A stretch of DNA of 64,000 nucleotides from a phage (GCA_024672315.1 GCA_024672315.1_4714.1), one strand, 5' to 3'; positions 31,061 to 64,000 are shown, counted from the stretch's first letter. Notes: generated by a model not told the origin, from the letters alone. Numbers and translations are program-made.

Positions 31061-31103
31061 ACATCAAAATGACGGCATAAAAAGTACCTCCTTACCCACA
31101 TGG
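31061..31103 (-). promoter_or_regulatory. Perfect 12-bp hairpin plus ACTTTTTATGCCGTC element
   Basis: ACCTCCTTACCC-acat-GGGTAAGGAGGT followed on the coding strand by TTTTTATGCCGTC, about 90 nt upstream of the ATG at 30983. Confidence 0.5.
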
Positions 31104-31244
31104 GTAAGGAGGTTCGTCCATCACGACGAAAGGACGTTATGTGACGCGGTGTCCATAACGGCCCTGGTAGCAGGCATCAAAGATAACAAAAAGGATGTAA
31201 GTTGAGCTAAACCACCTAAATACGGTAACGATTACTTCCGTACA

Positions 31245-39986: not shown

Positions 39987-40505
39987 CCTTGTCTTCGCCT
40001 CAGGTCGCTACGCTGAGACCGCCTGCGTGGATACGTACATCACAGGCTGCTTGCACTTTCATGCAAGAGGAGACTATATCAAACCGTCAGCTTCACCTGC
40101 TACGGTAACCTACACTTCGAAGACGCTTGTCCTCTACAGGGTGGTAAATCCCTTAGTCGTTGAACCTGCGTTGTTTCACATTCTTGTTTGCAAGAATGCC
40201 GTATTGCTACGCAACAACCAGGCTGCTGATTGCCCATTATCACGCACCTTAGCACCGCTTACGCGGCTTTTCTTTCAGCCTAAGCCTCCGTGGGAGGTAG
40301 TGCATCTCAACTGTTGTTTCCGCCTTTCGGCACCTCATGGGTTGTTGAGCTTTAGGGGTTCCCAGCAATTCGTAGGTTTTTCAAGCACTCCCTTTCGGGA
40401 ATACCGGACCAATTCAGTTAGTAAACAACATTATTACCATCCCTCATTCTTAAGGGTTAATTTTTTAAAATGATAAAATTAATGTGTTTTTGGGCTAACT
40501 CGAAG
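39987..40505 (-). other. Group I self-splicing intron (about 519 nt) within the RNAP beta-prime gene
   Basis: On the minus strand in canonical order: P-like AATTGCTGGGAAC (plus 40358-40370), Q-like AATCAGCAGCC (40221-40231), R-like GTTCAACGACTAAGG (40151-40165) and S-like GATATAGTC (40072-40080); exon 1 ends in U, the intron ends in G; no long ORF on the intron coding strand. Confidence 0.75.
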
Positions 40506-41972: not shown

Positions 41973-42217
41973 GGAGACACTCCTCTTTACCACCACCGGC
42001 TGCGGCGGTATCATCTGAACACACGAGAGACGTAATGGGTGATGGCGTCACCCATCGCTTCCTTGCCTGATGCCAGGAAGTTATTAGGTTACGTACCGGC
42101 TTGATAAAATCAAGCAGGCGATGTGTGAAGTTACGCTTCAACATTATCAATGCCGAAGGTAAGCTTCGTGCATCACGTTCCAACGTAACATGGGAACGTA
42201 TCGAACTGGAGGTATAC

Positions 42218-48883: not shown

Positions 48884-48894
48884 TCATTAGTTAA

Positions 48895-48913
48895 GGGCGG
48901 GAGATTCCCGCCC
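48895..48913 (+). terminator. Short GC hairpin GGGCGGG-agatt-CCCGCCC after the giant gene
   Basis: Located 12 nt after the stop at 48883; a weak U-tract suggests attenuation rather than a strong terminator. Confidence 0.35.
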
Positions 48914-48932
48914 TCTTCTTGAGGAATGTTAC

Positions 48933-51074
48933 ATGGGTATTCTTGTTCAAAACGCCCTAATAACCAAACAAGCGTTTTTATTACCTGGCGATAGCAGCAC
49001 GCTTAGTGCTGACATGATTAAAGCGAGACATACACCGTATTCCTACGATAACGTCGATGATACCACCTTAGGTGGGAACTGGGTGCTTAACCCGCCACCG
49101 CAATATACCAAATTTGCCGACATCAAAGAACGCCGACGTGCGGTTATGCCGGGATCAACGGGCATGGGCCGAGGCTATAGTGAAAGCATTAACAGCTTTA
49201 AAGAAGTCGTTACCTTACGATTCGGTAAACCTCGCTTTACAGGCGCAAGTATCTTCTTTACCGATTTCTACGACGCCGATGTTGCCGTAACGGTTAAAAC
49301 CGGTCGCGATCCCGGTATTCTTTATTACGCAGCCAAAGCGTATACCACCGTTCTTTCTTACCTCACACCGCTACCTTACCTGTATATGGTTGGACGTATC
49401 GGTCGATATTTCCTGGGTAAGCCTACCAGTCAATATTACTATCAAGTACCAACCATGCACGTGTATTGGGCGTCTTTCCAGACGCTGGTAAACCAAACAG
49501 CGATAAACATGGGTCTTATCGCCGGTGCCGGTAAAGATAAAGGCTACGTGGAAGAAGGGGGTACCGTACTCCATCAATATTCAATCGGTGGTCAGAACGT
49601 TGAAGAATTCATCAACTACGCCTCTAAGACGCTACCGGGGATTTATAAGAAAGGTGGTGGGATCGATATCTACCAGATTGCAACACGTCGTCAGCGTATA
49701 CAAAACGCATGGGTACGTCGTATTCAATCCATGATGGAAAACGATTACTCGTCTTACGAGGAGTTCTGGAACGATCTTGATAAACGACTTGATAGCGGAG
49801 CATTTCCATCGGATGTAACCGGTCGTACGTTAACGCAGTATCTCGCCGACACACAGAAGTCTGCTGTTTACAGTGCGACAGCTGGTGATAATAAACAAAC
49901 GATGGACGACCTTTTATTCGGAAGGGCCTCATACACCAACAAGGATGCTGATGCTAACTTCAATGTCTCAGCGGCTACCTCCGACGGCGGTACGTCAACA
50001 CAGAGTCAGGGTACAACAGCCAATGTCGGTAATTCAACATCGGGGACAACGCAGGCTTCAACAGCAGCATCCACGGCTGGAGGCGCGAACGTACAGAGCA
50101 AAGGAATCGGACAAACGAATGCAGCCGAAGAAGCTACGTTTCTTGATCTGATGGACGCTGAATTGGCCGACGGTGCTCAGTTCATCAGTTTTCGAGTCGA
50201 TTCTGTCACCAGTGTAACCGAAACGTTTTCAAACAGTGCTTCAGAAAGTTCAATCGCACAGACGATGAACAGCCGTGCACAAGCGAACATCGAACGTCGT
50301 TTCACCCTCTCCGGCGGTAATACAGGTTGGGCTGTACTGGACGAAGCCATCAAAGCCGGTTCCGACCTCGTTAATGGCGCTATTTCCGGGATGGGTTTGG
50401 ATGGTATTTTTGGTGCCTTCATGGGTTCCGGCTTCGCTGACATTCCGAAATTCTATTCTGGGTCTTCGGTAAGTCTACCGCGTGCGGATCTGACGATGGA
50501 ATTGCGTTCCTGGAGTGGGGATCGTTGGTCGATCTTTACGAACCTCATGGTACCTCTTTTAGCGATCCTTGCAGGTGGTTTACCTCAGGCTACCGGTAAA
50601 TCGTCCTACGGGATGCCATTCATGTGTGAGTGTTATATTCCCGGTAAAGTCCAGATTAAAATGGGTCTTATCGATAACATCACTGTGACGCGTCATGTTG
50701 GGAACGTACCATCAACGCGTGAGCGATTACCGTTGGGTATCGATGTCAGCTTCAGTGTTTATGACCTGTCGTCCATCGTCGCCATGCCGATCACAACGAC
50801 AGCCGCATCGATCGCAAAACTGGATCCTCGTGGCTTCTTAAGTGATCTTCTTGCTGATGATACCCCACTCAACAACTATCTTGCTGTATTATCGGCATTG
50901 ACACTTACGGAACAAGTTTACATGATTCCTGATTTAAGTCGTCGTATGCATAAAACCATGGCCGATATCGATAGTTTCTGGAGCAAAGGTAATTTTGCTA
51001 GCTGGTTATCTGACACCATGCCAGGCAGGATAGCATCAGGGCTGTTATGGAAACGTACAGAACGACCGTTCTGA
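48933..51074 (+). CDS. Hypothetical protein, probable virion protein (713 aa)
   Basis: Long ORF immediately downstream of the giant gene; contains a Ser/Thr/Gly-rich low-complexity region. Confidence 0.7.
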   Translation: MGILVQNALITKQAFLLPGDSSTLSADMIKARHTPYSYDNVDDTTLGGNWVLNPPPQYTKFADIKERRRAVMPGSTGMGRGYSESINSFKEVVTLRFGKPRFTGASIFFTDFYDADVAVTVKTGRDPGILYYAAKAYTTVLSYLTPLPYLYMVGRIGRYFLGKPTSQYYYQVPTMHVYWASFQTLVNQTAINMGLIAGAGKDKGYVEEGGTVLHQYSIGGQNVEEFINYASKTLPGIYKKGGGIDIYQIATRRQRIQNAWVRRIQSMMENDYSSYEEFWNDLDKRLDSGAFPSDVTGRTLTQYLADTQKSAVYSATAGDNKQTMDDLLFGRASYTNKDADANFNVSAATSDGGTSTQSQGTTANVGNSTSGTTQASTAASTAGGANVQSKGIGQTNAAEEATFLDLMDAELADGAQFISFRVDSVTSVTETFSNSASESSIAQTMNSRAQANIERRFTLSGGNTGWAVLDEAIKAGSDLVNGAISGMGLDGIFGAFMGSGFADIPKFYSGSSVSLPRADLTMELRSWSGDRWSIFTNLMVPLLAILAGGLPQATGKSSYGMPFMCECYIPGKVQIKMGLIDNITVTRHVGNVPSTRERLPLGIDVSFSVYDLSSIVAMPITTTAASIAKLDPRGFLSDLLADDTPLNNYLAVLSALTLTEQVYMIPDLSRRMHKTMADIDSFWSKGNFASWLSDTMPGRIASGLLWKRTERPF

Positions 51075-51092
51075 TATTCACCGCATAAACCC

Positions 51093-51124
51093 CCCTCTCC
51101 CTTCCCTGATGGGTCGGGAGAGGG
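51093..51124. terminator. Perfect 9-bp hairpin CCCTCTCCC-TTCCCTGATGGGTC-GGGAGAGGG
   Basis: Between convergent genes; loop nearly identical to the hairpin at 63955-63986. Confidence 0.55.
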
Positions 51125-51130
51125 ATTATG

Positions 51131-52198
51131 TTAACCTAACGTCACTGTCGGTAAATCAGGATAAAGTTTCTTCAATCCCGCCATCGTGGTGGTAGTCGTA
51201 TAATTCTTACCCATCACAGCAAGAGATGCGTATTTCCTACTGCGGGAGAAAAGGGAATAAAACCCACTGGATGTTTCCATCCACATCGTGAGGAGTTCTG
51301 CATCCTTACCGTGATAGTTCGTTTTACCCCATCCGGGTTTAAACGCATCGGCAAAATCAATTAAACGCGAGGCTTCAGCGTCGTATTCTTTAAGGGTAAG
51401 GTACGATGGGATACGGTAGTTACGGAACAGTAACGTAATGAGTTCAGGGACAACGCTACGGGCACGTTCAGCCGTAATGAGTTCGGTGATAACAGCAGCT
51501 GTACGGAAATCGCCGTTAAGACCAACGCTGCTTAACGATTCCGCTAAAGTGGTCGCCATCGCCACTTTATCCTCCGCTGACCCAGAGTCATACAGACTAC
51601 GTACATCGATATAGTTGCCTGCTAATGCGGCTTGACGAATCAACGACGTGACAACCGTCCGGTTCGTCTTATAGTCGTTGTAGCTGAATTCGGTTCGCGT
51701 TTTCCCTTGATCCTCGAGATACCGATCAACAATCGTCGACAGTTTATAATACTCATCGCCAGACATCAGACTATCGAGAAGCTTAACATTTCCATCTTTA
51801 TCGATAAGCTTCCCTAACGCACCATTGGATTGCTGGTTAATGGTGCTGTAAATCTGGTCTTTTACTTGCGATAGGATGTTATCGGTTGACGATATATTCA
51901 GGCCAGTAACATCTTTGATCTTATTCATCAACGCGTTTTCATTCAGGGAGATTTTGCCTCCGCTGATATCGATGAAAGAATTAAGATCGCTTATGGAAAT
52001 CAGGTTTCCTGTTAACGCCGATAATGTACTATTGATACTGTTCGTAATACTGCTACGAAAACTGGTTAACGCATCCGCCGCTGAAACAGCGGTACCGCTA
52101 ACCGCTTTAAGGAGCGTATCACGCCCTGTCGAAAAATCGCTGGTGATGGTTTTGATCTTGGACGTATCTATACTCGGCAGTTTGTCGTAAAGACTCAT
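51131..52198 (-). CDS. Hypothetical protein (356 aa; start re-assigned to MSLYDK)
   Basis: ATG at 52198 preceded by CAGGAGGACGTG (strong RBS); the track start at 52249 lies inside the hairpin/TATGCCG element. Confidence 0.6.
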   Translation of the reverse strand: MSLYDKLPSIDTSKIKTITSDFSTGRDTLLKAVSGTAVSAADALTSFRSSITNSINSTLSALTGNLISISDLNSFIDISGGKISLNENALMNKIKDVTGLNISSTDNILSQVKDQIYSTINQQSNGALGKLIDKDGNVKLLDSLMSGDEYYKLSTIVDRYLEDQGKTRTEFSYNDYKTNRTVVTSLIRQAALAGNYIDVRSLYDSGSAEDKVAMATTLAESLSSVGLNGDFRTAAVITELITAERARSVVPELITLLFRNYRIPSYLTLKEYDAEASRLIDFADAFKPGWGKTNYHGKDAELLTMWMETSSGFYSLFSRSRKYASLAVMGKNYTTTTTMAGLKKLYPDLPTVTLG

Positions 52199-52227
52199 CA
52201 CGTCCTCCTGAAAAAGAAAAAAGAAAT

Positions 52228-52264
52228 ACGGCATAAAGCCTACCCACACAATGGTGGGTAGGCT
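52228..52264 (-). promoter_or_regulatory. Perfect 10-bp hairpin plus TTTATGCCGTATTTC element
   Basis: AGCCTACCCA-cacaa-TGGGTAGGCT followed on the coding strand by TTTATGCCGT, about 30 nt upstream of the ATG at 52198. Confidence 0.5.
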
Positions 52265-52280
52265 AAGATCAACATCGATG

Positions 52281-52793
52281 TTAAACTTCTTCGTTTTCTG
52301 AACCTAGTGATTCAGCATCTGGATCGTCAACAGGAATGGTTGCGTCAAAATACCGTTTCGTATGCGTGGTTGTATATCCTACGCTATCTGTGATGGAAAT
52401 CGTAAACGTGACTTCTCTTGCACGGATTAAGCGTAGTTTATTCATGAAGTTACGGAACGGCATCGATCCCCGATTCAACTCCTTAATGACGTTTCCCCGA
52501 ATACTGGAAATGTCTTTATTCGTTTTATCAGGATGTCGTTTCTTCACATCACGCATATGTCGGGTAATATACGAATTGAGCTGATTTGCGCCGATCCCTC
52601 TCTCCGTATAAATCTGCAACAGGAACTCCGTAAGGAAATCCTGTCTACCCGTAGGCGTCCAGAAATTGTTACCGTGATTGTAGTTAGTCGCTCGTCCTCG
52701 ATTGCTTTGAGGATTTTCATCATCGCTTTCGTCACGACGCTTAAGCGGATTAATGCGCGCGCGAAAAGAGACTTCATTATATTTATTTGTCAT
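52281..52793 (-). CDS. Hypothetical protein (start re-assigned to MTNKYNEV)
   Basis: The track start at 52838 is a TTG codon; the first ATG is at 52793 and overlaps the upstream stop. Confidence 0.5.
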   Translation of the reverse strand: MTNKYNEVSFRARINPLKRRDESDDENPQSNRGRATNYNHGNNFWTPTGRQDFLTEFLLQIYTERGIGANQLNSYITRHMRDVKKRHPDKTNKDISSIRGNVIKELNRGSMPFRNFMNKLRLIRAREVTFTISITDSVGYTTTHTKRYFDATIPVDDPDAESLGSENEEV

Positions 52794-53305
52794 AATACAC
52801 CAGTGTACTGACTGAGTGCGAAGGTTAGGAGTTCGCAACAGTCTCTCGCTAGTTTCCTTGTTTTGCGTAATCCATAAGCCGCATCCAAATCGTCACGTTC
52901 CGCCAGCGCGTCTAACCACGTCGCAAGTATGCGTCCATACTCGATAACGTCACGCATGAGAACGTCGAACTGGATAACACGACCATCGGCATCAGCAAGC
53001 CAACGATTGAATGTGATTTGTGGTGCTAGTATTGCATATGTTCTCTCCTCTAATGCTATTATGTTTATGTTGCCTTCGTTATCGAACGCTTGATGCCAAC
53101 GGCGAAGGTCAAGCATCAACGACTCAGCGTCCATATACCACAACGGTAAATACGTTTTACGTGCAACGCGTATATCGTAGATGTTGTGAACCCAGGACGT
53201 TGTTTTGTAAAGCAACAAGAGTTCGTTTAACCGTTGCCTATCATCTTGAAACGTCTTCCTTTTATAACGTTGGAACGCACGCCTCAAGAAAAAGCGATGT
53301 AACAT
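52790..53305 (-). CDS. Hypothetical protein (171 aa)
   Basis: ATG at 53305; first gene downstream of early-promoter-like motif copy 3. Confidence 0.6.
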   Translation of the reverse strand: MLHRFFLRRAFQRYKRKTFQDDRQRLNELLLLYKTTSWVHNIYDIRVARKTYLPLWYMDAESLMLDLRRWHQAFDNEGNINIIALEERTYAILAPQITFNRWLADADGRVIQFDVLMRDVIEYGRILATWLDALAERDDLDAAYGLRKTRKLARDCCELLTFALSQYTGVL

Positions 53306-53394
53306 GGCATCACCTATGTATCATTCTTGCAGGCATCAATGAAGCCATCACAAGAAGGTAACGTTATACGTCGCCTTCATGACTGTCATCATGA

Positions 53395-53426
53395 AGGTAA
53401 TATAGTCCTGTTATTTTTTTCAATAC
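53395..53426 (-). promoter_or_regulatory. Early-promoter-like motif copy 3 (minus-strand reading TATTGAAAAAAATAACAGGACTATATTACCTT)
   Basis: Near-identical to copies 1 and 2; about 95 nt upstream of the leftward gene start at 53305, in a divergent intergenic region. Confidence 0.5.
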
Positions 53427-53438
53427 GGAGAATGTAAA

Positions 53439-54068
53439 ATGAGCGAATATGGTGTTGCCCCCGTAGATGATGAACCGCAAGAAGCACCTGATAAATTCGA
53501 GGTCCGTCTTGACGAAACCCGTAATATCCGCCAACGATTTATTCAACGCCTTGAAATGCTGTTAGATAGCGAATTCAAAGAATTTGAGCATAACCCCGGT
53601 GCTGATAATAAAGCCATCGTTGACGTCGAAAACGTCGACCGCATAGGTAAGCTGTTATTGAAATCGTTGGGTGATAACGACAAAGTCGACTTAACGTTGA
53701 AACGTATCAGCGCCGACCAGGCCATGAACGACAGCGCATTGAAAACAGCACAGGCCCTAACCGAAACCATGCTGCGCCGCTTAGGTCAGATGGATCAACA
53801 TCCTCTCGCAGCAGGGGCTGTTTATGAAGGCGAAGTCGTGAAGCCAGTCACGCCTGAAGAACGTGATCGTCGACTTGGTTTTGCGTCATTGGAAGAGTTC
53901 GACAGCAAGGAGTTTTCACCAGGCGTTCTCATCCAGGGACGTGTCGAAGAAACCAGCGATGCTTTCTATGCTAGAATGGCTCAACTGACGGCGTCGGTTC
54001 GTGAGGAGGTATCTCAGAAGATGGCTGCAGATCATCAGTCTTCGGAGGCGTCACACGAGGAGGAATAA
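53439..54068 (+). CDS. Acidic hypothetical protein (209 aa)
   Basis: ATG preceded by GGAGAATGTAAA; the 3' end overlaps the convergent ORF 53971-54759. Confidence 0.6.
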   Translation: MSEYGVAPVDDEPQEAPDKFEVRLDETRNIRQRFIQRLEMLLDSEFKEFEHNPGADNKAIVDVENVDRIGKLLLKSLGDNDKVDLTLKRISADQAMNDSALKTAQALTETMLRRLGQMDQHPLAAGAVYEGEVVKPVTPEERDRRLGFASLEEFDSKEFSPGVLIQGRVEETSDAFYARMAQLTASVREEVSQKMAADHQSSEASHEEE

Positions 54069-54759
54069 AATAACTGAACCATTTTATTCCAAAGAACCGC
54101 ATGAACATCACAGGTGCGTTAGAAAGTTCGATTGCTTCGTAAAGTTTGTCATAAGCCAGATCGGAATCAGGGATGGTTTCGCTGATTCGTCTGGCTACAA
54201 CCAGTACGTTACAAATCGGATTGTCTTCTAACAGCATCTGATTGGGGAGGTGCCAGCGTTTGAAATCGTAAAAGAACATCGCGTTATACGTCTTACGGAT
54301 TTCTGACGGATGCAGTGTGGCCGGATGACGGTAAATAATCTCGACGCTATCTTGCGCACCGAGGTATTGCTGGATGCCTTCTTTTAACGCAATTGCAGCA
54401 TCTCCCACAAATTCAAACGGGTACGTATTCACATGAACCGAAAAATCCGGTGCAGCAATCCCTGTCAAGCGGTCTTTCATGTAATCCGCGACCACGTAAC
54501 ATAATCGCCACATCAACTCCGTCGGAATGCATTTATCGAGAATGGTTTCGTCGATATTTGCCATCGCGTCCTTAAACTCTTCGTAAGTGTAAGTAACACC
54601 CGCCTGCTTCTCCGGCTCCAGGTTATAGGGTCGGTAATGCCATTTCTTCCCCCACTTTCTGATAGCCTCAGGATCCAACGTTGTTGCTACCGCCATTTCG
54701 ATATCAAGCAGCGCCTCGAGTTCTACGTACACCGTCACTAACGCCGCATTTCCAGTCAT
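53971..54759 (-). CDS. Hypothetical protein (262 aa)
   Basis: ORF; the C-terminal ~30 codons are proline-rich and overlap the convergent + gene. Confidence 0.5.
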   Translation of the reverse strand: MTGNAALVTVYVELEALLDIEMAVATTLDPEAIRKWGKKWHYRPYNLEPEKQAGVTYTYEEFKDAMANIDETILDKCIPTELMWRLCYVVADYMKDRLTGIAAPDFSVHVNTYPFEFVGDAAIALKEGIQQYLGAQDSVEIIYRHPATLHPSEIRKTYNAMFFYDFKRWHLPNQMLLEDNPICNVLVVARRISETIPDSDLAYDKLYEAIELSNAPVMFMRFFGIKWFSYFIPPRVTPPKTDDLQPSSEIPPHEPTPSVEPF

Positions 54760-55463
54760 CGTTGCTCTCCAGCTTCACCGGTTAACATCTGCATATCGGG
54801 AGACATTTTAATTTTCTTCTCGTACTCTTTTGTTTGTTTGAATACCAATTCACCGATTTCTTCCAATTCTTCAACGGTAACGGTATGCAAATAAAGCAAT
54901 GGAATAAACCAGGTATTCGCACGAAGCATATCCCGAATATCATCAACGGTGGGTAATTCCGTAAAGAACTGTTCGTCTACCGCGAATAAATCCCGTGCGA
55001 TACCATCCACCAGTTTATGATTGCTTTCATGGATCCATGCAAAACTTCCAGCAAGATGATCGATAAGCATATCGATGTCCTCGTCCGTTGAGAACACTGT
55101 ACGGCGAACATGCGTTGTGAGGTCCATCGTAAAACCCATTAACGAAGGGGTTTCCTCAGAACGGAGTTCACGCCAAAGACGGAGCATGTTTTCAGGGATA
55201 AACAAATCGTGGATGAACGTCACACTGAATTTCGTAACCCAGTCACGAATTGTTGCACCTTTGGCATATTGTTGCGGTGGGGAATACAAATACACCCAAC
55301 GTTTTGTGTACGCGATAACTTCCTTTCGCATCACCGCATCTAAAACAAGCACGTAACGATCGGAAGCAAGCTCTTCTAATAAAAGCTCGAACGCATCATC
55401 ACTCTCTGGAGAGAACGATCGTTTTATTTCTGCGATACGTCGTGATAACCGACCACGTAACAT
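54756..55463 (-). CDS. Hypothetical protein (235 aa)
   Basis: ORF with ATGA stop/start overlap with the downstream gene. Confidence 0.6.
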   Translation of the reverse strand: MLRGRLSRRIAEIKRSFSPESDDAFELLLEELASDRYVLVLDAVMRKEVIAYTKRWVYLYSPPQQYAKGATIRDWVTKFSVTFIHDLFIPENMLRLWRELRSEETPSLMGFTMDLTTHVRRTVFSTDEDIDMLIDHLAGSFAWIHESNHKLVDGIARDLFAVDEQFFTELPTVDDIRDMLRANTWFIPLLYLHTVTVEELEEIGELVFKQTKEYEKKIKMSPDMQMLTGEAGEQR

Positions 55464-55465
55464 AA

Positions 55466-56140
55466 TTAGCCCTCATCAAGGTTATTCTGGAGATGCATCG
55501 CGGTGAGGATAACACCAACCGCCGAAACCGATTTTGCCTTGCTGTCTTCAGGGAGCTGCTCCAAGCTTACGGTACCTGTCTCTAACAGCATGCGGTTCAT
55601 CGCGTTGAATTTCTTATCGTCACCACCACGAGCCTGCATCAACTCTCTGTTCACGTTCGGCATCGACCGTCCTAACGTCGCTTGCATTTCCGGCTGGCTC
55701 CAAGTGGAACCTTTACTATCACCCGTCGGCTGATTAGTCAGCTGGTCCTTGGTGTTGTTGTTTTTCGGAATCGAAATTTTAGCACTCAACGTTTCGGCTT
55801 GTCGGCGGTTTGGAATCAGGTACAATCTGGTTGGGCGGTCACGAAGCACCAATTGCCCTGTTTTCTGGTCGGTGAGATAAATACGCTGGAAGAAGGGGAA
55901 ACCGTATTTCTTACCGACTTCCAACGCACGTTTTATCGTCACCTCGTTTTTGTTCATGTTGGGTACCCAGATGGGTAGAATCTCTTTCTTATCCCGACAT
56001 AAACGCATATAGGCATCAAACGTCTCATCATCGATTTCAGCAAAACGTTTTTTGTAAATAGCGTAAGTCGGGCTCGATTCACCCACCAGGTCTTTGATAT
56101 ACCCAAGAATGAATTTTTCTGCTGCAGCGCGGTTGGACAT
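55466..56140 (-). CDS. Hypothetical protein (224 aa)
   Basis: ORF. Confidence 0.6.
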   Translation of the reverse strand: MSNRAAAEKFILGYIKDLVGESSPTYAIYKKRFAEIDDETFDAYMRLCRDKKEILPIWVPNMNKNEVTIKRALEVGKKYGFPFFQRIYLTDQKTGQLVLRDRPTRLYLIPNRRQAETLSAKISIPKNNNTKDQLTNQPTGDSKGSTWSQPEMQATLGRSMPNVNRELMQARGGDDKKFNAMNRMLLETGTVSLEQLPEDSKAKSVSAVGVILTAMHLQNNLDEG

Positions 56141-56149
56141 AAACGTCTC

Positions 56150-56491
56150 CTATTGTCGTGTCTGTTGCGGAAATACCCGAAACACCTGGACAATGATGTT
56201 CTTGTCCTCGCGGTTGGCGATGTCGATCATGTGTTTTGTTCCAGGACTTTTGAAATCCCAGAACGCAATTAGATGCGTAATGACATCGCCCATCCACTCA
56301 TTGCGTCTGAATCCAGCACCTTTACGATAAGGGCCATCCCAATCGGCAGGAAACGTGGTGTATTTAAACCCGTAATCCTTCGCGTAGCGGCGCACATGCA
56401 AATCAGCGCCTGAATGCGCACCGCCAGCAATGAGATGAACTTTGTCGTGAGGAAGGTTGTGTAACATCTGGTTCATACGCTTTTCGAACAA
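56150..56491 (-). CDS. DUF2493/SLOG-like small protein (113 aa)
   Basis: IAGGAHSGADLHVRRYAKDYG..FPADWDGPYRKGAGFRRNEWM matches the recalled DUF2493 pattern (GGAxGAD ... W ... AGxxRN); unverified. Confidence 0.45.
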   Translation of the reverse strand: MFEKRMNQMLHNLPHDKVHLIAGGAHSGADLHVRRYAKDYGFKYTTFPADWDGPYRKGAGFRRNEWMGDVITHLIAFWDFKSPGTKHMIDIANREDKNIIVQVFRVFPQQTRQ

Positions 56492-56544
56492 GGGATAATC
56501 ATCCCAGTAGCGTGATCCTGATACCCCTACACGATAGGGTTCGC

Positions 56545-56865
56545 TTATCTTCCACCGCGCAATGACTTTACGTTACGTGCAATAAAGGGTGCAACATAAT
56601 CACGGAAATTATGGATCCATCCTTTAATGGGTTGGTTGTCGAGTAAGCACTCACGTACCGAAAACGTACTTACTTCTAACACACCAAACTGCAGTCGCCA
56701 ATAGCGATTGATTTCAGCTTGGGTATGTTCTAATGTCATGTACTCAGGAACACGAGCCAGTAGGTCGTGTTTAAATTGCTCAGCAATCGCTGGTTGATGT
56801 GACGCAATTGTCTGCGTGATAACATCAATCAGTTCATGTGCATGCTTGATAGCAGGTGCGGTCAT
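56545..56865 (-). CDS. Hypothetical protein (106 aa)
   Basis: ORF. Confidence 0.5.
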   Translation of the reverse strand: MTAPAIKHAHELIDVITQTIASHQPAIAEQFKHDLLARVPEYMTLEHTQAEINRYWRLQFGVLEVSTFSVRECLLDNQPIKGWIHNFRDYVAPFIARNVKSLRGGR

Positions 56866-56877
56866 TTATTTAGCCTT

Positions 56878-58368
56878 TTATTTTTTACTCGGACGATTCA
56901 ATGCGGGTACCGGGTTCTTTGGTTGCTTTGTCTTTTCATCCATCCAGTACGGGAAGTACTCACCAGTACGCATACGCAATAAGTCCATTGTAGACAGGAA
57001 CGGCAGTGGGTTAGGATCGTCCAAATACGTCCAGTAACCACGCGTGTTTAACAATACATCCCAATCGAAACCTTTTGCTTTAAGATCGTCGTATAGTTCC
57101 TGTGGGGTGCAATACAGCTGTGGGTTTTCGTAAACCTCTTGACGCCAGAGATTATGCATCTGACACAGCTCCGACGTGATTTCCAGAGCACGCTGTAAAT
57201 ACTCATCCTCTTCGCAGAGAGAACGAATGGTCGTACGCTGCAACGCAACATCCGGATAAATATCCAAATATACCGTTGAAGCACCATCCGCTGACTTACC
57301 ACCTGACGCATGCATACCCCAACCACGCATCCAATCTTTATCACGCAGGTAGTGGTATTCCGTTAATGATGGTTTAACCCCTTCGCTCTGACTAACCACA
57401 ATCGGGAACGGTAAACCGGTAGGTCCGTTTTTAGCGCGCATGTTGAAGACTTGAATCAACTGCAGATCGGTATCCCCGATAAGGTTGTCACCAGGCCCAC
57501 GCGGATAAAGGACGCGTTTATCGGCGTTCTGAAGAATCGTCAGTTTATCGATTTTCCAGAGGTTATTCGTATAAAACGTGAAGCGTTCCGGGACGTTCTT
57601 AAACTTCTCATCGCCCTTAAACCCTTTCAGTTTTCGTACCGGCTGCTGGCCTGGCATACCACCAACGTTTACACCGTCACCAAGGTGGGCGGTCATGGTA
57701 ATGTAGATACCCGCCGACGCTGTGAGTACCGGCATCTGTGATAGAATCTGGCTTTTCGCTGCGGCTGAACGCATCGCTTCGGCATTCAGTTTTGCACCAC
57801 CTGCGGTTTCTTTATCGAACAGTGCATCAACGGCGTCGATTGGTAATCCAGAGAAACTGTCGATGAGTACAACGGTTGGCAACCACCAGGTATAGTTCTC
57901 ACCGTGTTTATTAATGAACGGAACGGCTTTGCGTTGAGATTTATCTTTGACCTTGTCATCACGGAATTTCTTAATCGCATCAAACCAAATGTTACCGCTC
58001 ATCTGAACAGCATCGGTGATAAACACACGTTCTTCTTCGAAAAGATCGACGCCTGCGATATTAGACATGTTCATCGCAAGCGTTAAGATACGTGTCGTCG
58101 TTAACGACATTTCTGTGTCGTAAACGCTACTATTGCTGTTTGCGTAACGATCGATAACGCGTAACAAGCGAAACATTATGAACGTGGTTTTGTTCATGTT
58201 GCCGCGAGCGCCTGCGCCCTCAACAAGCATCATACCGCCGTTACAAATGCTTTCACCGTGTTTACCGACATAGTACCGACCACCAGATGTGGGAATATCC
58301 ATTAAGCAGCCAATGTTGAGATTAAAACGCATCTCTTCACCGGGAGAAAGGTACTTATTAAGATTCAT
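56878..58368 (-). CDS. Hypothetical protein (496 aa)
   Basis: Long ORF; no motifs recognised with confidence. Confidence 0.65.
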   Translation of the reverse strand: MNLNKYLSPGEEMRFNLNIGCLMDIPTSGGRYYVGKHGESICNGGMMLVEGAGARGNMNKTTFIMFRLLRVIDRYANSNSSVYDTEMSLTTTRILTLAMNMSNIAGVDLFEEERVFITDAVQMSGNIWFDAIKKFRDDKVKDKSQRKAVPFINKHGENYTWWLPTVVLIDSFSGLPIDAVDALFDKETAGGAKLNAEAMRSAAAKSQILSQMPVLTASAGIYITMTAHLGDGVNVGGMPGQQPVRKLKGFKGDEKFKNVPERFTFYTNNLWKIDKLTILQNADKRVLYPRGPGDNLIGDTDLQLIQVFNMRAKNGPTGLPFPIVVSQSEGVKPSLTEYHYLRDKDWMRGWGMHASGGKSADGASTVYLDIYPDVALQRTTIRSLCEEDEYLQRALEITSELCQMHNLWRQEVYENPQLYCTPQELYDDLKAKGFDWDVLLNTRGYWTYLDDPNPLPFLSTMDLLRMRTGEYFPYWMDEKTKQPKNPVPALNRPSKK

Positions 58369-58466
58369 TGGGTAAAGACTCCTTCGATTCTTCGACTAAT
58401 TCTTAGTGTTCAGAGAATAACTATTTTTAGTTAAGACTGACAACCACTATTTCCACGAGGACCATC

Positions 58467-59309
58467 ATGCATAAATTTACCATTCCTGAAGACCCGATTA
58501 CACTGCAGACCCTTTGGGATTCACATCGTGCTTTATCAATGGAAGGCTTTGCGCAAGACTTCGCTTCACTTACCGCAGTAACGAATCTTCGTAGCATGTT
58601 TACCAACGGTAAGAAGTTTGTTACCGATTGGCTTAAGAAACGTGATGTGACGGTTTATCCTAAAGTCTTCGATGACCTCGATACCATCTTTAGCAACAAC
58701 GCTTACAGCGATCTCATTGGGTATCGCGCTTTTATTCCGAATGGTTTAAATGCGCCGATGTCAGATTATGTTGTTGCTTTAACCCAGAGTCTGGATAGCG
58801 TAATTGGCACCATCCTACCTGATTTGGATAAGTTGACCGTAACGTGCGCTAAAGCCGTCAACGACGTTAACTTCCGTCGCAGTAGTGGTATGGCTCAAAC
58901 GCTACCTAAAAACGATCCAGAGAACGTTCTAGAGACGTTACGTGCGATGTTCAAACAAGGGACGGTAACACAGACCACTGTAGGCCGTGCATATAAGAAC
59001 GAAGATGATATTCGTCAGATCGGAAAAGATCTGGATGCTTCCCGTATCCGTGCGCTTGACGTTAATCCTAAAGACGTGAAGAAGGCAATCGAACGTTTCA
59101 TGGAGGTGGCTGACCGTTTAACCGAAATCCTGGTTCAAGACTACAATGAAGGTGCGGTGAGCAACGCGATGATTCGCGATATTAGCGATGCTATCTACCA
59201 AACAGCCAAGCAGGCTGAACTGTATGCGTTTCTCGTGAACGCTTTGGCTGAGGCGATCATCGCATATAACGATACCTGGGACGCCGTTAAAAAGAACGCG
59301 AAAAAATAA
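58467..59309 (+). CDS. Hypothetical protein (280 aa)
   Basis: ORF. Confidence 0.6.
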   Translation: MHKFTIPEDPITLQTLWDSHRALSMEGFAQDFASLTAVTNLRSMFTNGKKFVTDWLKKRDVTVYPKVFDDLDTIFSNNAYSDLIGYRAFIPNGLNAPMSDYVVALTQSLDSVIGTILPDLDKLTVTCAKAVNDVNFRRSSGMAQTLPKNDPENVLETLRAMFKQGTVTQTTVGRAYKNEDDIRQIGKDLDASRIRALDVNPKDVKKAIERFMEVADRLTEILVQDYNEGAVSNAMIRDISDAIYQTAKQAELYAFLVNALAEAIIAYNDTWDAVKKNAKK

Positions 59310-59317
59310 CATAATAA

Positions 59318-59353
59318 CCCACCCTACTACCCCGTTAAGGGCGGTAGGGTGGG
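59318..59353. terminator. Perfect 10-bp hairpin CCCACCCTAC ... GTAGGGTGGG followed by GGTTTATTTGCCGTATAG
   Basis: Between convergent genes 58467-59309 (+) and 59361-59792 (-). Confidence 0.55.
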
Positions 59354-59360
59354 ATAAGGT

Positions 59361-59792
59361 TTATTTGCCGTATAGATGTACCACTCGTTGTGTCGTAGGA
59401 ACGCAGACTCTTACCAGAAGCTTCTTAATCTCCTGACGAATCGTTGCTTTATCATCATAATAAAGCCATGGTGGAACGCGCTGCATTATGCACTGCACGG
59501 CTTCATCGTAGTTCGTCGTCTCATTGAGTAACGTCTCACTATCCAAATCTTTCCATGCAGTAATACCAAGTCGCGCAGCAAACATCAACGCTGAAACCGA
59601 CTCAGCTATCTCCAATCGCTCATTCATATCCGCAAGACCTTTTAGCATGATGTAATTATCATCATGCTGATGTAAAGTGCCATACAAACTTCCGAAGAGA
59701 AGTATACGTTTAGCTTTTGCGGTTAAGAGGAACGACAGGAGAGCGTGTTTCAACGGTTGTTTCTCACGTTCTACCTGTTCGACCATCACCAT
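59361..59792 (-). CDS. Hypothetical protein (143 aa)
   Basis: ORF. Confidence 0.5.
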   Translation of the reverse strand: MVMVEQVEREKQPLKHALLSFLLTAKAKRILLFGSLYGTLHQHDDNYIMLKGLADMNERLEIAESVSALMFAARLGITAWKDLDSETLLNETTNYDEAVQCIMQRVPPWLYYDDKATIRQEIKKLLVRVCVPTTQRVVHLYGK

Positions 59793-59795
59793 TGA

Positions 59796-61322
59796 TTACT
59801 CCAACACATAACGTGGGTTACTGTATATGTTAGCCCATATACCAACGTCGTCTCCTGATTCGATAATCACAGCGAAACGAAACGCAACATCAGATTCACG
59901 ATAAGTTACCGCGTACGCTTTCGTTTCTGGAGATGCTAAATAGCTCAAGTTCAGACGTTGAGGTAGGTCTAACCCCAAGGACATGGTACAAGACGTAACG
60001 CCCTGCTTATCAGGGTTCAGTCTGTAATTCACGTCCACCTTCAGGCTTTTCGTAACCTGCGTAATCGCACTATGCACTTTGGTAACCGTTTTGCCTTTCT
60101 TATCCTTTTCTGTTTCGAAAAGAACATCGGTAATTTCGGTTACAACCAGGCGTGGTGTGGATTCGCGGTTAGCGTCAAGCCATTCATCCAGTAACGTCTT
60201 TAAGAAGTTCAAGGAATCAATCGCACGCCAAGCAAGGTTAGGCGGATTACATGCTTCCATTAAAATGGCTGTGTTCGATCCACCTAGCGGAAGATGCACG
60301 CTCTTACCGAGGCCTGTCGGACGCATCGTAAGATCGCACTCACCCTCAAGAATATCGCGATGATATTGACGATGATGAAGGTTATCCGTGTATGCGATAT
60401 ACACTGACTCCGTTGTCCCATGCTCTAATACCCGAGACGCATGCGTACGCATAATCTCAACAGCATCATCCGGCTTGCTTAAATAGATAACACTGTACGC
60501 ACTATCGCTAATCCTTTTCCCTAACTCAAGACGTCCCTTGTTGTCTTTATCGGTGTTACCACCGAAATAGATGTAGCGGCCATCTTTCGCACGCTCTTGC
60601 TGCTGGTTGGTGGTAAAGTAGCAGCGCGAGAACGTAAAGAACGGGCTTATTTCCGGTTCGGGACTCCAATACCCCTTAGCCGGAAGTTCGCGACGTATTT
60701 GGGTTCTTACAGCCCAGTCCTGGTTTTGTGACAGATATGTTCCACGCGTTGCCAGCATATCCGCACGTTCGTTACCAACATTGCCCTCATGTCCAGGAAC
60801 GTAGCGCAGCGAAATATCGATAGCGTCGCGCTTCGCATCCCTTATCACGCTATCGAGTTTCCGCCACCGTTCCGCATTCATTAACGGTTTATTGTCGGAT
60901 TTAACCCAGTTGTTCTCTCGCCAGTTAGCAAGATGGTTGGTGGCACCTACAACAACATATTGGCTGTCCGACAACAGCTGGATCCGTTTTGCCCCCTTTG
61001 CTTTTCCAAGTTCAATCGCACGTATTGCAGCATCCAACTCAGCCTGATTGTTAGTTACGTTGAAACCCAAAGCCTCTAACTCATCCACGTATTCCTTGGG
61101 TTCGACCAGCACAGCGTCTTTAGGAAAGTCGAGTTTAGGGTCAACATAACCGTATTGCGTTGGTTTGGGCTTCCCACTTTTTGAGGGTTCCAAGGTGCCT
61201 TTTATTTCTTTCACCATATCGTAGGTGTAGCCGTGCACGCCGTAGCCACCATACCCACTCGATGTTGGACGGGATCCTCCATCACAGTAGAAAACGGCAC
61301 CGAGCTCAGTATTTCCTGCCAT
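59796..61322 (-). CDS. RNase HI-domain protein fused to a ~300-aa C-terminal domain of unknown function
   Basis: N-terminal ~200 aa carry RNase HI motifs: YCDGG, TNNQAELDAAIRAIE, LLSDSQYVV and VPGHEGNVGNERADMLATRG (compare E. coli RnhA NNRMELMAAI, TDSQYV, VKGHAGHPENERCDELAR). Start re-assigned to ATG at 61322 (GAGG RBS). Confidence 0.75.
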   Translation of the reverse strand: MAGNTELGAVFYCDGGSRPTSSGYGGYGVHGYTYDMVKEIKGTLEPSKSGKPKPTQYGYVDPKLDFPKDAVLVEPKEYVDELEALGFNVTNNQAELDAAIRAIELGKAKGAKRIQLLSDSQYVVVGATNHLANWRENNWVKSDNKPLMNAERWRKLDSVIRDAKRDAIDISLRYVPGHEGNVGNERADMLATRGTYLSQNQDWAVRTQIRRELPAKGYWSPEPEISPFFTFSRCYFTTNQQQERAKDGRYIYFGGNTDKDNKGRLELGKRISDSAYSVIYLSKPDDAVEIMRTHASRVLEHGTTESVYIAYTDNLHHRQYHRDILEGECDLTMRPTGLGKSVHLPLGGSNTAILMEACNPPNLAWRAIDSLNFLKTLLDEWLDANRESTPRLVVTEITDVLFETEKDKKGKTVTKVHSAITQVTKSLKVDVNYRLNPDKQGVTSCTMSLGLDLPQRLNLSYLASPETKAYAVTYRESDVAFRFAVIIESGDDVGIWANIYSNPRYVLE

Positions 61323-61372
61323 TGTAAACCTCATTAATCATTGTCCGTATGATAGCCCAAAGTTGTACGGTA

Positions 61373-61924
61373 TTACCGATTACCGTCGGTTGACGTTGGT
61401 TGATCGCGATCGACTTTCATTGACCGCAGTTTTCCGCCGTTAATTACACATTGATTGCGTTGTTTGGCGGAGGTCAGACTATTACAGACGTAATAGGTAT
61501 CGATAAAACGTTCAACGCGTTCTTGAAACTCCCTCTCGTCAACTTTATCTTTTTCAAAGGTTCGTAACGCTCGATCAACCTCACCCTGGAGAATCCGGTT
61601 CTGTTCAACCATACTGTCGATTAAACGGCCTCGTACTTCGTTCGATGTGTAGAGTTGACGAATCAGTTCTCGGTTGGTGTCTCGCGCATAACGCAATGTT
61701 GCATTTTCCTGACGTAAACTCGTCACGTCAGCCATCAAGGTAATGATTTTTTCGCCAGCGAATAACGTCACGATACCCAATACGATGAAAAAGCCCGTAA
61801 TCAAGAATATCGAGGACTGTCGAGCTCCATCTCGACGATAGCGTGTGGGCGGTCGCTTACTTCGCCGAAACAACTCGCGAAGAAAAGGGAAAAGCCAGGG
61901 CAACGCCTTGAGTGTAGTAAACAT
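61373..61924 (-). CDS. Membrane-anchored coiled-coil protein (184 aa; start re-assigned to MFTTLKA)
   Basis: Basic N-terminus, one hydrophobic helix (IFLITGFFIVLGIVTLFAG), then a charged coiled-coil-like region; ATG at 61924 preceded by AAGGA. Confidence 0.5.
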   Translation of the reverse strand: MFTTLKALPWLFPFLRELFRRSKRPPTRYRRDGARQSSIFLITGFFIVLGIVTLFAGEKIITLMADVTSLRQENATLRYARDTNRELIRQLYTSNEVRGRLIDSMVEQNRILQGEVDRALRTFEKDKVDEREFQERVERFIDTYYVCNSLTSAKQRNQCVINGGKLRSMKVDRDQPTSTDGNR

Positions 61925-61978
61925 GCGTGTGTCCTTGATAGTATGAAATTTCCAATACAACTTAACCGAGGACGTCGA

Positions 61979-63319
61979 ATGATTAGTATTTTTGGTTTTT
62001 ATACGTACAAAGGGTACGCTAATAACCACCCAAAAACCACGGCGAAATTCGGTGAGTTCAGTCAGCACAGTGCTACGTTCAGTCGCGAGATCGGCATCTA
62101 TTCCAACACGGCGTACGCACGTACGACCTTATTAGTGTTGAATGCCGAAAACGAAGCTGGTGAAGCACAAACGCTGAATGACGACACCGCAGGCCGTATT
62201 CTTCAGGTTGGTCAATGGTTGCTGGAAAAAGCCGCATCGGGCGAAATCCAGGAAGACCGAGACCAGGTTATCAGTTACCTAAAAGACGACTTCACAACGT
62301 ATCTGGATTCTATCGACATCCCAACACCCACCACCGATGGTACAGTCTATCTACCGGCGTGGATCAGTTTCAAGATAACCGCCACCGGCGATGTTGTCAA
62401 GATTTGGTTGTCTGATAGCGTATTCCAAAGTCAATATCCAAAATACGAATATGAAGTCGTTCCCCCTGTTCCTAAGGATCAGTTAGATACCTTCTTCGAA
62501 GATCTGGCAACATTGAAGAAACTGGTTGACAGTCGAAGCAGCGAGAAACTGACCGAAGAAATCAACGAGGTGCGCGACCAATTCCCAGACACACAATTGT
62601 GGACGAAAACCTATAAAGCGTATGATTACACCGACGATTCGAAATACATTAATACCGATTGGACGGTGATTATCTACGGTGCGGCAGGTAACAACATTGA
62701 TAATATCAAGGAGTTCCTGCAAAACTGGATTCTTAGCAATAGCACACACGGACGTCCAGACTGGGAAATCGTTCTGCCGGATCTTTTTATTCCGACAGAA
62801 CACATCTTCATCCCGATCTGGAACCGCCACAGTGCTCCAGAGATGACCAATCAGGCACGTATCTATAGTCCTATCTTCGATGATTCGTTGATGGATACCT
62901 ACCTGAAAAACTTTGCTGATGGTTACGGCGAAACCGCCGAAGTCCGTAAGTCGCTTCAAGCGGTGCCGACGCTGTGGCGCTCGATCGGTTTCTTAAGTGT
63001 TGGTAACTCACGTAACCGAGACGGTAAACTTAAGTTCTACGATCGTTGGCCGCAATACGCGCTCATCAGCACAACCAGCATCGACATTAACCGTATCGAT
63101 GATGCGACACGTGAATTCATCACGTTCACTTACGAAATGCTGAAACTGGCAGAATCGCTCACCGAAGACGACCCGGTACCGTTGGGTTATAGTCGTGTTA
63201 CGCGCGGTAGCAATAGCTTCTTAGCGAAAAGCCACAACGATGTTCAGTATCTCTTCTTAACAAAAGAAGCGTTCCTGAAGAAAATGCCGGATGAAGCCGA
63301 CACACCCGTTGGAGGTTGA
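61979..63319 (+). CDS. Hypothetical protein (start re-assigned to MISIFGFY)
   Basis: ATG at 61979 preceded by GAGGACGTCGA; the track start at 61943 leaves only an 18-nt divergent intergenic gap. Confidence 0.55.
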   Translation: MISIFGFYTYKGYANNHPKTTAKFGEFSQHSATFSREIGIYSNTAYARTTLLVLNAENEAGEAQTLNDDTAGRILQVGQWLLEKAASGEIQEDRDQVISYLKDDFTTYLDSIDIPTPTTDGTVYLPAWISFKITATGDVVKIWLSDSVFQSQYPKYEYEVVPPVPKDQLDTFFEDLATLKKLVDSRSSEKLTEEINEVRDQFPDTQLWTKTYKAYDYTDDSKYINTDWTVIIYGAAGNNIDNIKEFLQNWILSNSTHGRPDWEIVLPDLFIPTEHIFIPIWNRHSAPEMTNQARIYSPIFDDSLMDTYLKNFADGYGETAEVRKSLQAVPTLWRSIGFLSVGNSRNRDGKLKFYDRWPQYALISTTSIDINRIDDATREFITFTYEMLKLAESLTEDDPVPLGYSRVTRGSNSFLAKSHNDVQYLFLTKEAFLKKMPDEADTPVGG

Positions 63320-63948
63320 TTATGGCTGTAACACGCATGACGCCAAGTCCCGGTGCGGTCGGGGTATTCACAGTATCAGCGCCGTTTACCGTTGGTGCGT
63401 CGACGCTATATACCGTTACAGCGTTGCGAAGATTTAGCGAAGTCATCGGTAGTGGAATCGATCTATTTACGGAACTGTACGAACCGTTATCGATAGACAA
63501 ATCCACTTTCGAAGCGCATCTCGAAGCGAATGCTTATCTCGTCACGTTGCAACCAGATTATGGTGCGCCCGTACTGGTACCCGACACGTATATCACGTCG
63601 TACCCAAAGAACGATTCCTTGCGGTATCGTCGCATTATTCTGGGTATCGATTTCGGGCCTCTTCCTCCCGGTCTTGACCTTTCGTATTTAACAACGATAT
63701 TGAAAGGTAAGGCCAGTGATATTCTTGGTGTCGAACCTGAAGTTAAAACGATGGAAATCACGCTCGATGATACCGTTACTCAGGAACAACATCAGATAAA
63801 CGAAGCCCGTCGTCAGGCTGCGATAAAAGAGCGAGATACCATTTACGCACGCTGTGAAACGCAAGAGAAGCAGATAACGGCTTTACTTGCAACCCAAAAG
63901 CAACTTATCAAATTGCTTCAAGACGCCGGAATCAATCCGACACCTTAA
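63316..63948 (+). CDS. Hypothetical protein (210 aa)
   Basis: ATGA-overlapped with the upstream gene; C-terminal coiled-coil-like region. Confidence 0.6.
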   Translation: MIMAVTRMTPSPGAVGVFTVSAPFTVGASTLYTVTALRRFSEVIGSGIDLFTELYEPLSIDKSTFEAHLEANAYLVTLQPDYGAPVLVPDTYITSYPKNDSLRYRRIILGIDFGPLPPGLDLSYLTTILKGKASDILGVEPEVKTMEITLDDTVTQEQHQINEARRQAAIKERDTIYARCETQEKQITALLATQKQLIKLLQDAGINPTP

Positions 63949-63954
63949 CATATT

Positions 63955-63986
63955 CCCTCCTCCTTCCCTGTTGGGTTGGAGGAGGG
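63955..63986 (+). terminator. Perfect 9-bp hairpin CCCTCCTCC-TTCCCTGTTGGGTT-GGAGGAGGG followed by GTTATGCCGTC
   Basis: Immediately after the stop at 63948; same loop family as 51093-51124 and followed by the TATGCCG element. Confidence 0.55.
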
Positions 63987-64000
63987 TTATGCCGTCAAGC

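Follow-up and report, generated by a model that had tools for sequence, protein, structure and literature searches.

The closest described counterparts of the elements treated here are the terminators of the phages phiKZ and 201phi2-1. ONT-cappable-seq (ONT, Oxford Nanopore Technologies) of phiKZ gave 133 termination sites, 61 of them with the motif 5'-BCCYCCCCHWWDGGGRRGGBYTTATKYYGT-3', in which a short loop separates a pyrimidine arm from a purine arm and TTATKYYGT comes after a 2-nt spacer; between convergent genes there are six regions that terminate in both directions (Putzeys et al. 2024, Microlife, PMC10914365). A similar motif is found in 59 of the 132 terminators of 201phi2-1, where 15 sites are bidirectional and variants with an elongated stem (motif A+B) terminated most strongly when tested with a reporter in the host (PMC11512511). 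The DNA analysed here, a stretch of 64,000 nucleotides from a phage (GCA_024672315.1) that is referred to as the window, aligns collinearly, at 96.5-97% identity, with the final 64 kb of Escherichia phage Goslar, one of the nucleus-forming jumbo phages (chimalliviruses). It contains a real family of stable hairpins at gene ends, as the original prediction had it, and these are best read as terminators: very probably they are transcription terminators of the conserved Chimalliviridae type and the Goslar-lineage members of a known family. They are a known kind of element, not a new one. The evidence consists of their anatomy, their genome-wide distribution and directionality, the covariation of their stems, their equal stability on the two strands, and a design like that of phiKZ.

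The window and Goslar hairpins have in common with the phiKZ motif a pyrimidine 5' arm, a purine 3' arm, a spacer of 1-3 nt and the TTATKYYGT tail. Arms of the phiKZ type (CCYCCCC on the 5' side, GGGRRGG on the 3' side, G+C-rich) occur in the four hairpins first reported (2490-2535, 28463-28499, 51093-51124 and 63955-63986) and in three more, and TTATKYYGT follows 1-3 nt past the stem, with single sites such as 51093 (+) matching TTATG alone. The phiKZ and Goslar types are also alike in standing after stop codons, in being two-way between convergent genes, and in belonging to phages with their own multisubunit RNA polymerases. For Goslar, the presence of phiKZ-type multisubunit polymerase genes is based on the depositors' annotation, which lists several homologues of the beta and beta-prime subunits and places Goslar_00231 within the span of the window. 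The terminator sites of phiKZ were read in its first 50 kb, where CCCTCCC-loop-GGGAGGG is found at 13 sites, in most cases with CTTATG or CATTATG after it; at the convergent junctions 25215, 34918 and 43770 the hairpin is framed as a palindrome, CATAAG-hairpin-CATTATG, as in the window. Differences concern the stem and loop. Goslar-lineage stems are longer (9-12 bp versus 7 bp in phiKZ), and in place of the short phiKZ loop (about 4 nt, HWWD) there is a 14-nt nested region, in many of the hairpins, or a loop of 5-7 nt. Like the elongated A+B hairpins of 201phi2-1, this loop is a variant peculiar to its lineage. That phage, compared by description, resembles the present one in having a sequence-defined chimallivirus terminator family with elongated stems and many bidirectional sites, and differs in host and lineage.

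Bacterial bidirectional intrinsic terminators are similar in so far as a G+C-rich hairpin at convergent gene ends acts on both strands and is followed by a weak A/U-rich segment. That segment is a U-tract in bacteria, whereas the window elements have mixed A/U with an invariant TATG (tails such as AUUAUG and UUAUGCCGU). A scan of 44001-64000 for a U-run (at least 5 of the 8 nt after the stem) picks up neither of the hairpins at 51093 and 63955, classical terminators are about as frequent as chance predicts (24 found, 20.5 expected), and a canonical scan for terminators and promoters misses these elements. The base of the 3' arm is purine-rich in the window elements; in typical Escherichia coli terminators it is C-rich. 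An Rfam 15 scan of the window, judged by each family's gathering score, gave no family for the hairpins, its sole match being a group I intron (see below). The original prediction that these are not generic terminators is right as regards the missing U-tract and the presence of a conserved sequence signal, and wrong as to where the signal lies, which is in the TTATGCYGT tail and not in the loop.

The flanks of the hairpins had been overlooked in the earlier description. CATA stands upstream and TATG downstream, so that TATG is found 3' of the hairpin on both strands. The tail, (W)TTATGCYGT, starts 1-3 nt past the stem on the transcript-downstream side; at convergent junctions it is present on both sides, and in gaps between genes of the same strand TATG occurs on the transcript-downstream side only. 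The whole Goslar genome was assembled with its annotation for counts of junctions and hairpins. There, TATG lies within 12 nt on 37 of 47 downstream sides, compared to a genomic background of 2.5%, while at one-way sites it occurs on the upstream side in 2 of 15 cases (Fisher p = 9e-6). The spacing from stem to TATG is 1-3 nt in 29 of the 37, and the consensus around the tetramer is W-T-TATG-C-Y-G-T. The tail is also borne by hairpins that are not pyrimidine-first, for example on the minus strand at 52237-52264; since this stem (unit 52228-52264) lacks the usual arm order and yet is tailed, it is the tail that defines the family. At about five co-directional Goslar sites (49776, 117670, 152277, 166928 and 191778) the next gene is annotated as starting at the ATG of the tail, and at the others this ATG it is 19-200 nt from the next start codon. 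Because this ATG is only rarely a start codon, the tail is a signal in its own right.

The positions of the elements agree with a function at transcript ends. They had been described as lying where plus-strand genes end, and plus-strand stop codons do occur 4-26 nt upstream of the four hairpins (2486, 28437, 51074 and 63948). This description is incomplete, as minus-strand genes end just downstream as well (2553, 28512 and 51131), making these sites convergent junctions. The gene layout of Goslar and the window consists mainly of minus-strand genes with short plus-strand islands between them, and all seven two-way sites of the window are at convergent gene ends, after stop codons. A strong hairpin is present at 18 of the 20 convergent junctions of Goslar, the remaining two being junctions where the genes overlap; these hairpins are pyrimidine-first except for 232609, which has A residues in an arm. 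Throughout the Goslar genome there are 39 pyrimidine-first stems of at least 7 bp and 8 purine-first ones, and about 33 of the 39 are intergenic, G+C-rich and located after stop codons. Only 18 putative terminators are annotated in the Goslar record, 5 of them at its 20 convergent junctions.

All four of the hairpins first reported are present, and pyrimidine-only 5' arms with purine-only 3' arms are borne out in each. Perfect pyrimidine-first stems of at least 8 bp number 6 in the window, where 200 dinucleotide shuffles predict 0.045; purine-first perfect stems of this length number 0, where shuffling predicts 0.065. Fold z-scores range from -2.8 to -7.0 and stabilities from -19 to -33 kcal/mol. 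In total there are seven two-way and about six one-way sites, the two-way members additional to the first four being 10997-11021 and 17335-17374, from the stem scan, and 59318-59353, from a folding scan. The seven sites, with RNAfold energies in kcal/mol, are as follows.

2482-2552, both strands: composite two-way unit between genes ending at 2486 (+) and 2553 (-); core 2506-2537, CATCCTCCC-AA-CCC-GTAA-GGG-AA-GGGAGGATG, in an outer helix, with CATAA at 2482-2486 and TATG at 2549-2552; -33.4 (+), -33.1 (-)

10997-11031, plus strand: hairpin unit CCTCCCTCG-GTGTTTT-CGAGGGAGG with the degenerate tail TATTTGCCGT, 14 nt past the plus-strand stop at 10983

17335-17374, both strands: two-way unit CATAG-CCTCCTCTGGG-AATGGAA-CCCAGAGGAGG-A-CTATG, in the gap between a plus-strand gene (orthologue of Goslar_00211) and a minus-strand gene (orthologue of Goslar_00212); -32.1 (+), -32.8 (-)

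28441-28505, both strands: two-way unit between genes ending at 28437 (+) and 28512 (-); hairpin 28463-28499, CCTTCCTTCCC...GGGGAAGGAAGG, with loop subtype TAGCCGTCAAGGCCG, unlike the loops of 51093 and 63955; plus-strand tail TTTATG (TATG 28502-28505), minus-strand tail from CATA 28451-28454, and an A9 run at 28441-28449 that becomes U9 after the tail on the minus strand; -31.3 on each strand

51084-51130, both strands: two-way unit between a plus-strand gene ending at 51074 and a minus-strand gene ending at 51131; hairpin 51093-51124, CCCTCTCCC-TT-CCC-TGAT-GGG-TC-GGGAGAGGG, made of an outer stem (51093-51101 with 51116-51124), a TT/TC internal loop, an inner stem (CCC 51104-51106 with GGG 51111-51113) and the tetraloop TGAT; CATA 51084-51087 gives TATG on the minus strand, and the plus-strand tail is ATTATG (TATG 51127-51130); -26.4 (+), -26.5 (-)

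59310-59353, listed for both strands: hairpin unit CCCACCCTACTACCC-CGTTAA-GGGCGGTAGGGTGGG between genes ending at 59309 (+) and 59361 (-); CATA 59310-59313 provides a TATG tail on the minus strand only; the Goslar orthologue is annotated as a putative terminator

63949-63995, both strands: two-way unit after a plus-strand gene ending at 63948, with CATA 63949-63952 and hairpin 63955-63986, CCCTCCTCC-TT-CCC-TGTT-GGG-TT-GGAGGAGGG, with a nested CCC/GGG mini-stem; the tail 63987-63995 is the exact consensus TTATGCCGT, and the converging minus-strand gene in Goslar (Goslar_00001) is past the end of the window; -29.3 (+), -28.2 (-)

At 2490-2535, RNAfold favours the core 2506-2537 within a longer outer helix (2484-2550). 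The loop subtype of 28463 is found again at Goslar 11186 and, on the minus strand, at Goslar 84366. At 10974-11031 the plus-strand gene (stop 10983) and a minus-strand open reading frame (ORF; stop 10974) overlap tail to tail, and the hairpin 10997-11021 falls within the last 16 codons of the latter (...IPPSKTPREEAIVNQK*). This unit probably serves plus-strand transcripts only, and either the end of the minus-strand ORF at 10974 is dispensable or mis-called, or minus-strand transcripts must pass through the hairpin.

The segregation of pyrimidines and purines between the arms was previously taken to give the hairpin different stabilities on the two transcribed strands. When both strands were folded at the seven window sites the differences were at most 1.1 kcal/mol, so this view cannot be maintained. 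The reverse complement of a pyrimidine arm, loop and purine arm is again a pyrimidine arm, loop and purine arm, which means that transcripts from either side receive a hairpin of the same polarity, and the element is polarity-symmetric, not asymmetric. Its stems show compensatory change: in an alignment of 14 distinct nested copies, pairing is kept in 98.2% of the stem cells, double-sided changes from C-G to U-A are seen at five pairs, and there are no one-sided changes and no G-U intermediates. The absence of G-U pairs is what would be expected if pairing must hold on both strands.

Unlike arm composition, runs of A are a real strand difference. Runs of at least 7 A on the plus strand occur just upstream of 4 of the 19 hairpins at Goslar convergent junctions (36846, 48107, 146607 and 200229), and one A-run is downstream of its hairpin (Goslar 237246); the A-run of the window, at 28441-28449, is upstream. 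No T-runs were seen on the plus strand at the Goslar convergent-junction hairpins. Read on the minus strand, the upstream runs give the order hairpin, TATG, U-run, that is, a classical U-tract is added for minus-strand transcripts only.

The 14-nt loop region shared by 51093 and 63955 is near-identical in the two (12 of 14 nt), with a nested CCC/GGG mini-stem predicted on both strands, and is in effect a nested extension of the stem, in which a 2x2 internal loop leads to a CCC/GGG stem capped by a tetraloop. It does recur elsewhere: the module is present about 15 times in Goslar (19 pattern matches against 1.4 by shuffling). Among 2.9 million viral contigs, the exact loop core was present in just three, all Goslar-like, and the module is absent from the terminators of phiKZ and of the chimallivirus Erwinia phage Ea35-70 in the stretches examined. 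The proposal that the conserved loop is a recognised element did not survive the comparison of copies, since the module is found in either orientation and is inverted between orthologous sites. At Goslar 48116 the loop is AACCCGTAAGGGAA, and the orthologous site in a 182-kb relative (L013:8907) has the exact reverse complement between identical flanks. Similarly, the Goslar orthologue of 51093 (224384-224415) has AACCCGTGAGGGAA, in the opposite orientation to the TTCCCTGATGGGTC of the window, which is itself identical in 13 of 14 positions to the Goslar copy at 237255. Comparison of 51102-51115 with Goslar 224393-224406 fits either an inversion plus three further changes or conversion from the 237255 copy. 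Small inversions via the hairpin arms appear to occur in these genomes. As the two orientations differ in the RNA (AA/AA versus UU/UU in the internal loop, GUAA versus UUAC in the tetraloop), a reader of the loop sequence is improbable, and the 14-nt loop is unlikely to be a recognition sequence. The 51093 and 63955 loops resemble each other as members of a paralogous family whose copies have stayed similar through descent or gene conversion. Two more specific candidates were also rejected. GNRA-type tetraloops (GTAA, GTGA) do not track the transcribed strand, as four one-way minus-strand sites have them on the non-transcribed strand; and for the RNA-binding protein ChmC, considered as a reader of the hairpins, no motif is reported and binding is near start codons.

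The order of the arms differs between lineages. One common scan, covering 107 kb of phiKZ and 50 kb of Ea35-70, gave the following counts.

Window: 10 pyrimidine-first, 1 purine-first

Goslar: 41 pyrimidine-first, 6 purine-first

phiKZ (107 kb): 25 pyrimidine-first, 1 purine-first

Ea35-70 (50 kb): 0 pyrimidine-first, 7 purine-first

Ea35-70 has the same framed palindromes at convergent junctions, GCATAA-hairpin-TTATGCCG(T), and its arms are likewise segregated into purines and pyrimidines, but the purine arm comes first (e.g. GAGGGAGAGG...CCTCTCCCTC) while the tail TTATGCCG is kept. Its purine-first hairpins (contig L021, at 5447, 6053, 11378, 24075, 27578, 47095 and 49563) carry a TATGYYG tail in six of the seven cases. 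Pyrimidine-first polarity as a family-wide requirement is ruled out by Ea35-70. To judge from the sequences compared, purine/pyrimidine segregation and the tail are shared across lineages, and which arm comes first is a lineage trait.

The functional unit has two parts, a stable G+C-rich hairpin with segregated arms and the tail (W)TTATGCYGT. The fast-folding nascent hairpin would form at the time when the polymerase holds the weak, A/U-rich hybrid of the tail (UUAU), with release of the transcript a few nucleotides past the stem. At convergent junctions the palindrome CATAA-hairpin-TTATG would allow one element of 45-70 bp to stop the transcripts of both strands, with the 14-nt loop as a Goslar-lineage extension of the stem that would add stability and be alike between copies by common descent or gene conversion. 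From the homology of design with the mapped terminators we infer that transcripts of this phage have their 3' ends at these sites and are released without the help of a factor. Several points weigh against this interpretation. A good tail is missing on one side at 10997 (-) and 59318 (+), as well as at Goslar 11186. The model does not account for the purine/pyrimidine segregation of the arms. Taken literally, the strict IUPAC (International Union of Pure and Applied Chemistry) motif is not matched anywhere in phiKZ 1-50 kb, which means that the comparison rests on shared architecture, the motif being a consensus summary. The literature searched holds no paper that maps RNA 3' ends or describes hairpins in Goslar or the window phage, and in the phiKZ mapping ONT 3' ends cannot fully part termination from processing.

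This last point bears on the alternative that the hairpins are RNA 3'-end stability or processing elements, where transcription reads through and the RNA is trimmed by nucleases to the hairpin or cleaved at the A/U-rich tail. Very stable hairpins (-19 to -33 kcal/mol) would suit such a role, and a single-stranded A/U-rich tail beside a stem resembles RNase E-type cleavage contexts; nor can the mapped 3' ends of phiKZ formally exclude processing (PMC10914365). However, terminators of this type from 201phi2-1 blocked a downstream reporter in vivo, in an assay that measures termination (PMC11512511), read-through at convergent junctions would produce long antisense RNA to the neighbouring gene, and the tail is kept in phages whose hosts differ in their nuclease sets, so that processing has little chance of being the main function. 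An alternative centred on the tetramer is that these are stop-restart junctions, with the TATG of the tail also working as a late promoter for the non-virion polymerase. Late promoters of phiKZ have exactly TATG as their consensus, its G being +1, and initiation depends on this tetramer (PMC4666361); the tails of co-directional sites, 19-200 nt upstream of the next start codon, would leave a leader of plausible length. Against this, TATG alone is insufficient for promoter activity and downstream sequence is required (PMC4666361). The model late promoter P119L of phiKZ, which was checked for a position behind a terminator hairpin, has no such hairpin upstream and marks initiation, not termination; the CYGT conserved after TATG in the tails is not found in phiKZ late promoters; and restart at convergent junctions would give antisense RNA only. 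A general stop-restart role is unlikely.

Translational control has a superficial appeal, in that GGAGG in the purine 3' arm followed by ATG 4-8 nt further on is a textbook ribosome-binding site: the arm would be a masked Shine-Dalgarno sequence and the tail ATG a start codon, as annotated at about 5 of the roughly 15 co-directional Goslar sites. Most co-directional tail ATGs are nevertheless 19-200 nt from the next start, convergent junctions have no downstream gene, and the ATGs at 51093 open frames of 3 and 2 codons. In Ea35-70, which keeps the tail, the purine arm comes first and so cannot provide the tail ATG with a Shine-Dalgarno sequence. Masking of a Shine-Dalgarno sequence was rejected as the main function, as about five co-directional sites fit and the convergent sites are impossible, and translational control in general is extremely improbable. 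Scarcely more credible is a role at the DNA level, whether as cruciforms or protein-binding palindromes (in recombination, packaging or nucleoid organisation) or as selfish repeats of the REP (repetitive extragenic palindromic) or MITE (miniature inverted-repeat transposable element) kind. Perfect Watson-Crick symmetry without G-U would suit a DNA palindrome, the inversion of loops between orthologues is a DNA-level event via inverted arms, and some copies are very similar (Goslar 27746 and 71990 are near-identical over ~50 nt, and 48107 is identical over the 32-nt core). On the other hand, copy similarity stops at the hairpin and tail, the elements are found only at gene 3' ends, the tail shows a direction (37 of 47 downstream versus 2 of 15 upstream), and the homologous design coincides with mapped RNA 3' ends in phiKZ and 201phi2-1. 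The best-supported interpretation is still that of transcription termination.

Within that interpretation, the identity of the tail core deserves attention, since the late promoter TATG consists of the same four invariant bases. In a 2026 structure, TATG on the non-template strand, at -3 to +1, is bound by GP123, a beta-like subunit of the polymerase core (PMC12809450). Being permanently attached, such a subunit stays with the polymerase during elongation, and the same pocket could grip the TATG behind the hairpin. It is tentatively suggested, as a possibility of lower probability than termination itself, that the elongating polymerase re-reads TATG 1-3 nt past the hairpin, giving a sequence-specific pause that would replace the U-tract. 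With such a pause the RNA would end some 4-7 nt from the stem, the hairpin would then free the transcript, and restart at the G of TATG might directly follow. Promoter and tail are physically distinct settings of the tetramer, P119L having no hairpin upstream and promoters no CYGT. The two papers on the terminator motif (PMC10914365, PMC11512511) make no mention of TATG.

The one-way elements of the window are all on the minus strand.

4768-4809, minus strand: one-way unit AACCGATCTGGC-TTCG-GCTGGATCGGTT then CTTTTTTATGCCGT, a T-run and tail combined

8817-8849, minus strand: one-way unit GAGCCTGTCC-TTCG-GGGCAGGCTT then TTATGCCGC; the Goslar orthologue is annotated as a putative terminator

14288-14331, minus strand: one-way unit with a variant tail, GCCGTCTCGAG-TTAT-CTCGAGACGGT...TTATACTGT

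29500-29544, minus strand: one-way unit TATGACCCCACCGTAGCCC-TGTATG-GGGTTGCGGTGGTGGTTATG, whose tail takes part in pairing at the stem base

31072-31113, minus strand: one-way unit ACCTCCTTACCC-ATGT-GGGTAAGGAGGT then ACTTTTTATGCCGT

52228-52264, minus strand: one-way unit in a co-directional gap, AGCCTACCCAC-CATTGT-GTGGGTAGGCT (52237-52264) followed directly by TTATGCCGT (52228-52236)

A further hairpin, CCTTCC...GGAAGG at 15845-15869, occurs in a divergent (promoter-side) gap between a minus-strand gene start near 15837 and a plus-strand gene start at 15943. Lacking a tail and lying away from gene ends, it probably does not belong with the terminators.

The group I intron (Rfam RF00028, 63.6 bits) is on the minus strand at 40050-40434, between the large minus-strand ORFs 35457-39803 and 40479-42014, the second being orthologous to a Goslar gene for a beta-like RNA polymerase subunit. 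Goslar is ~1.5 kb longer in this region (window gap 40096-40505, Goslar 211863-213797), and its extra stretch includes Goslar_00230, which resembles phiKZ ORF179 (endonuclease-like) and is absent from the window phage, so that close relatives differ in the ORF content of the intron region. When the ends of the linear Goslar record are joined (237246-237307 to 1-100), ~55 nt are duplicated, comprising part of the 237246 hairpin, the tail and the A-run. The ends of the record thus overlap, as a terminal repeat or an assembly overlap, and the window end at 64000 falls just inside this region.

A hairpin followed by TTATGCYGT provides a simple rule for marking the ends of transcription units in Goslar-like and other chimallivirus genomes, where standard terminator finders miss most of these sites. 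The analysis goes slightly beyond the published motif in that the tail emerges as the conserved, directional part of the signal, while polarity, which is reversed in Ea35-70, and loop content, which flips between close relatives, are lineage-specific. If the tentative reading of the tetramer were true, one polymerase pocket would serve both start and stop signals, and the fact that the tail core equals the promoter tetramer makes termination by sigma-less polymerases a directly testable question.

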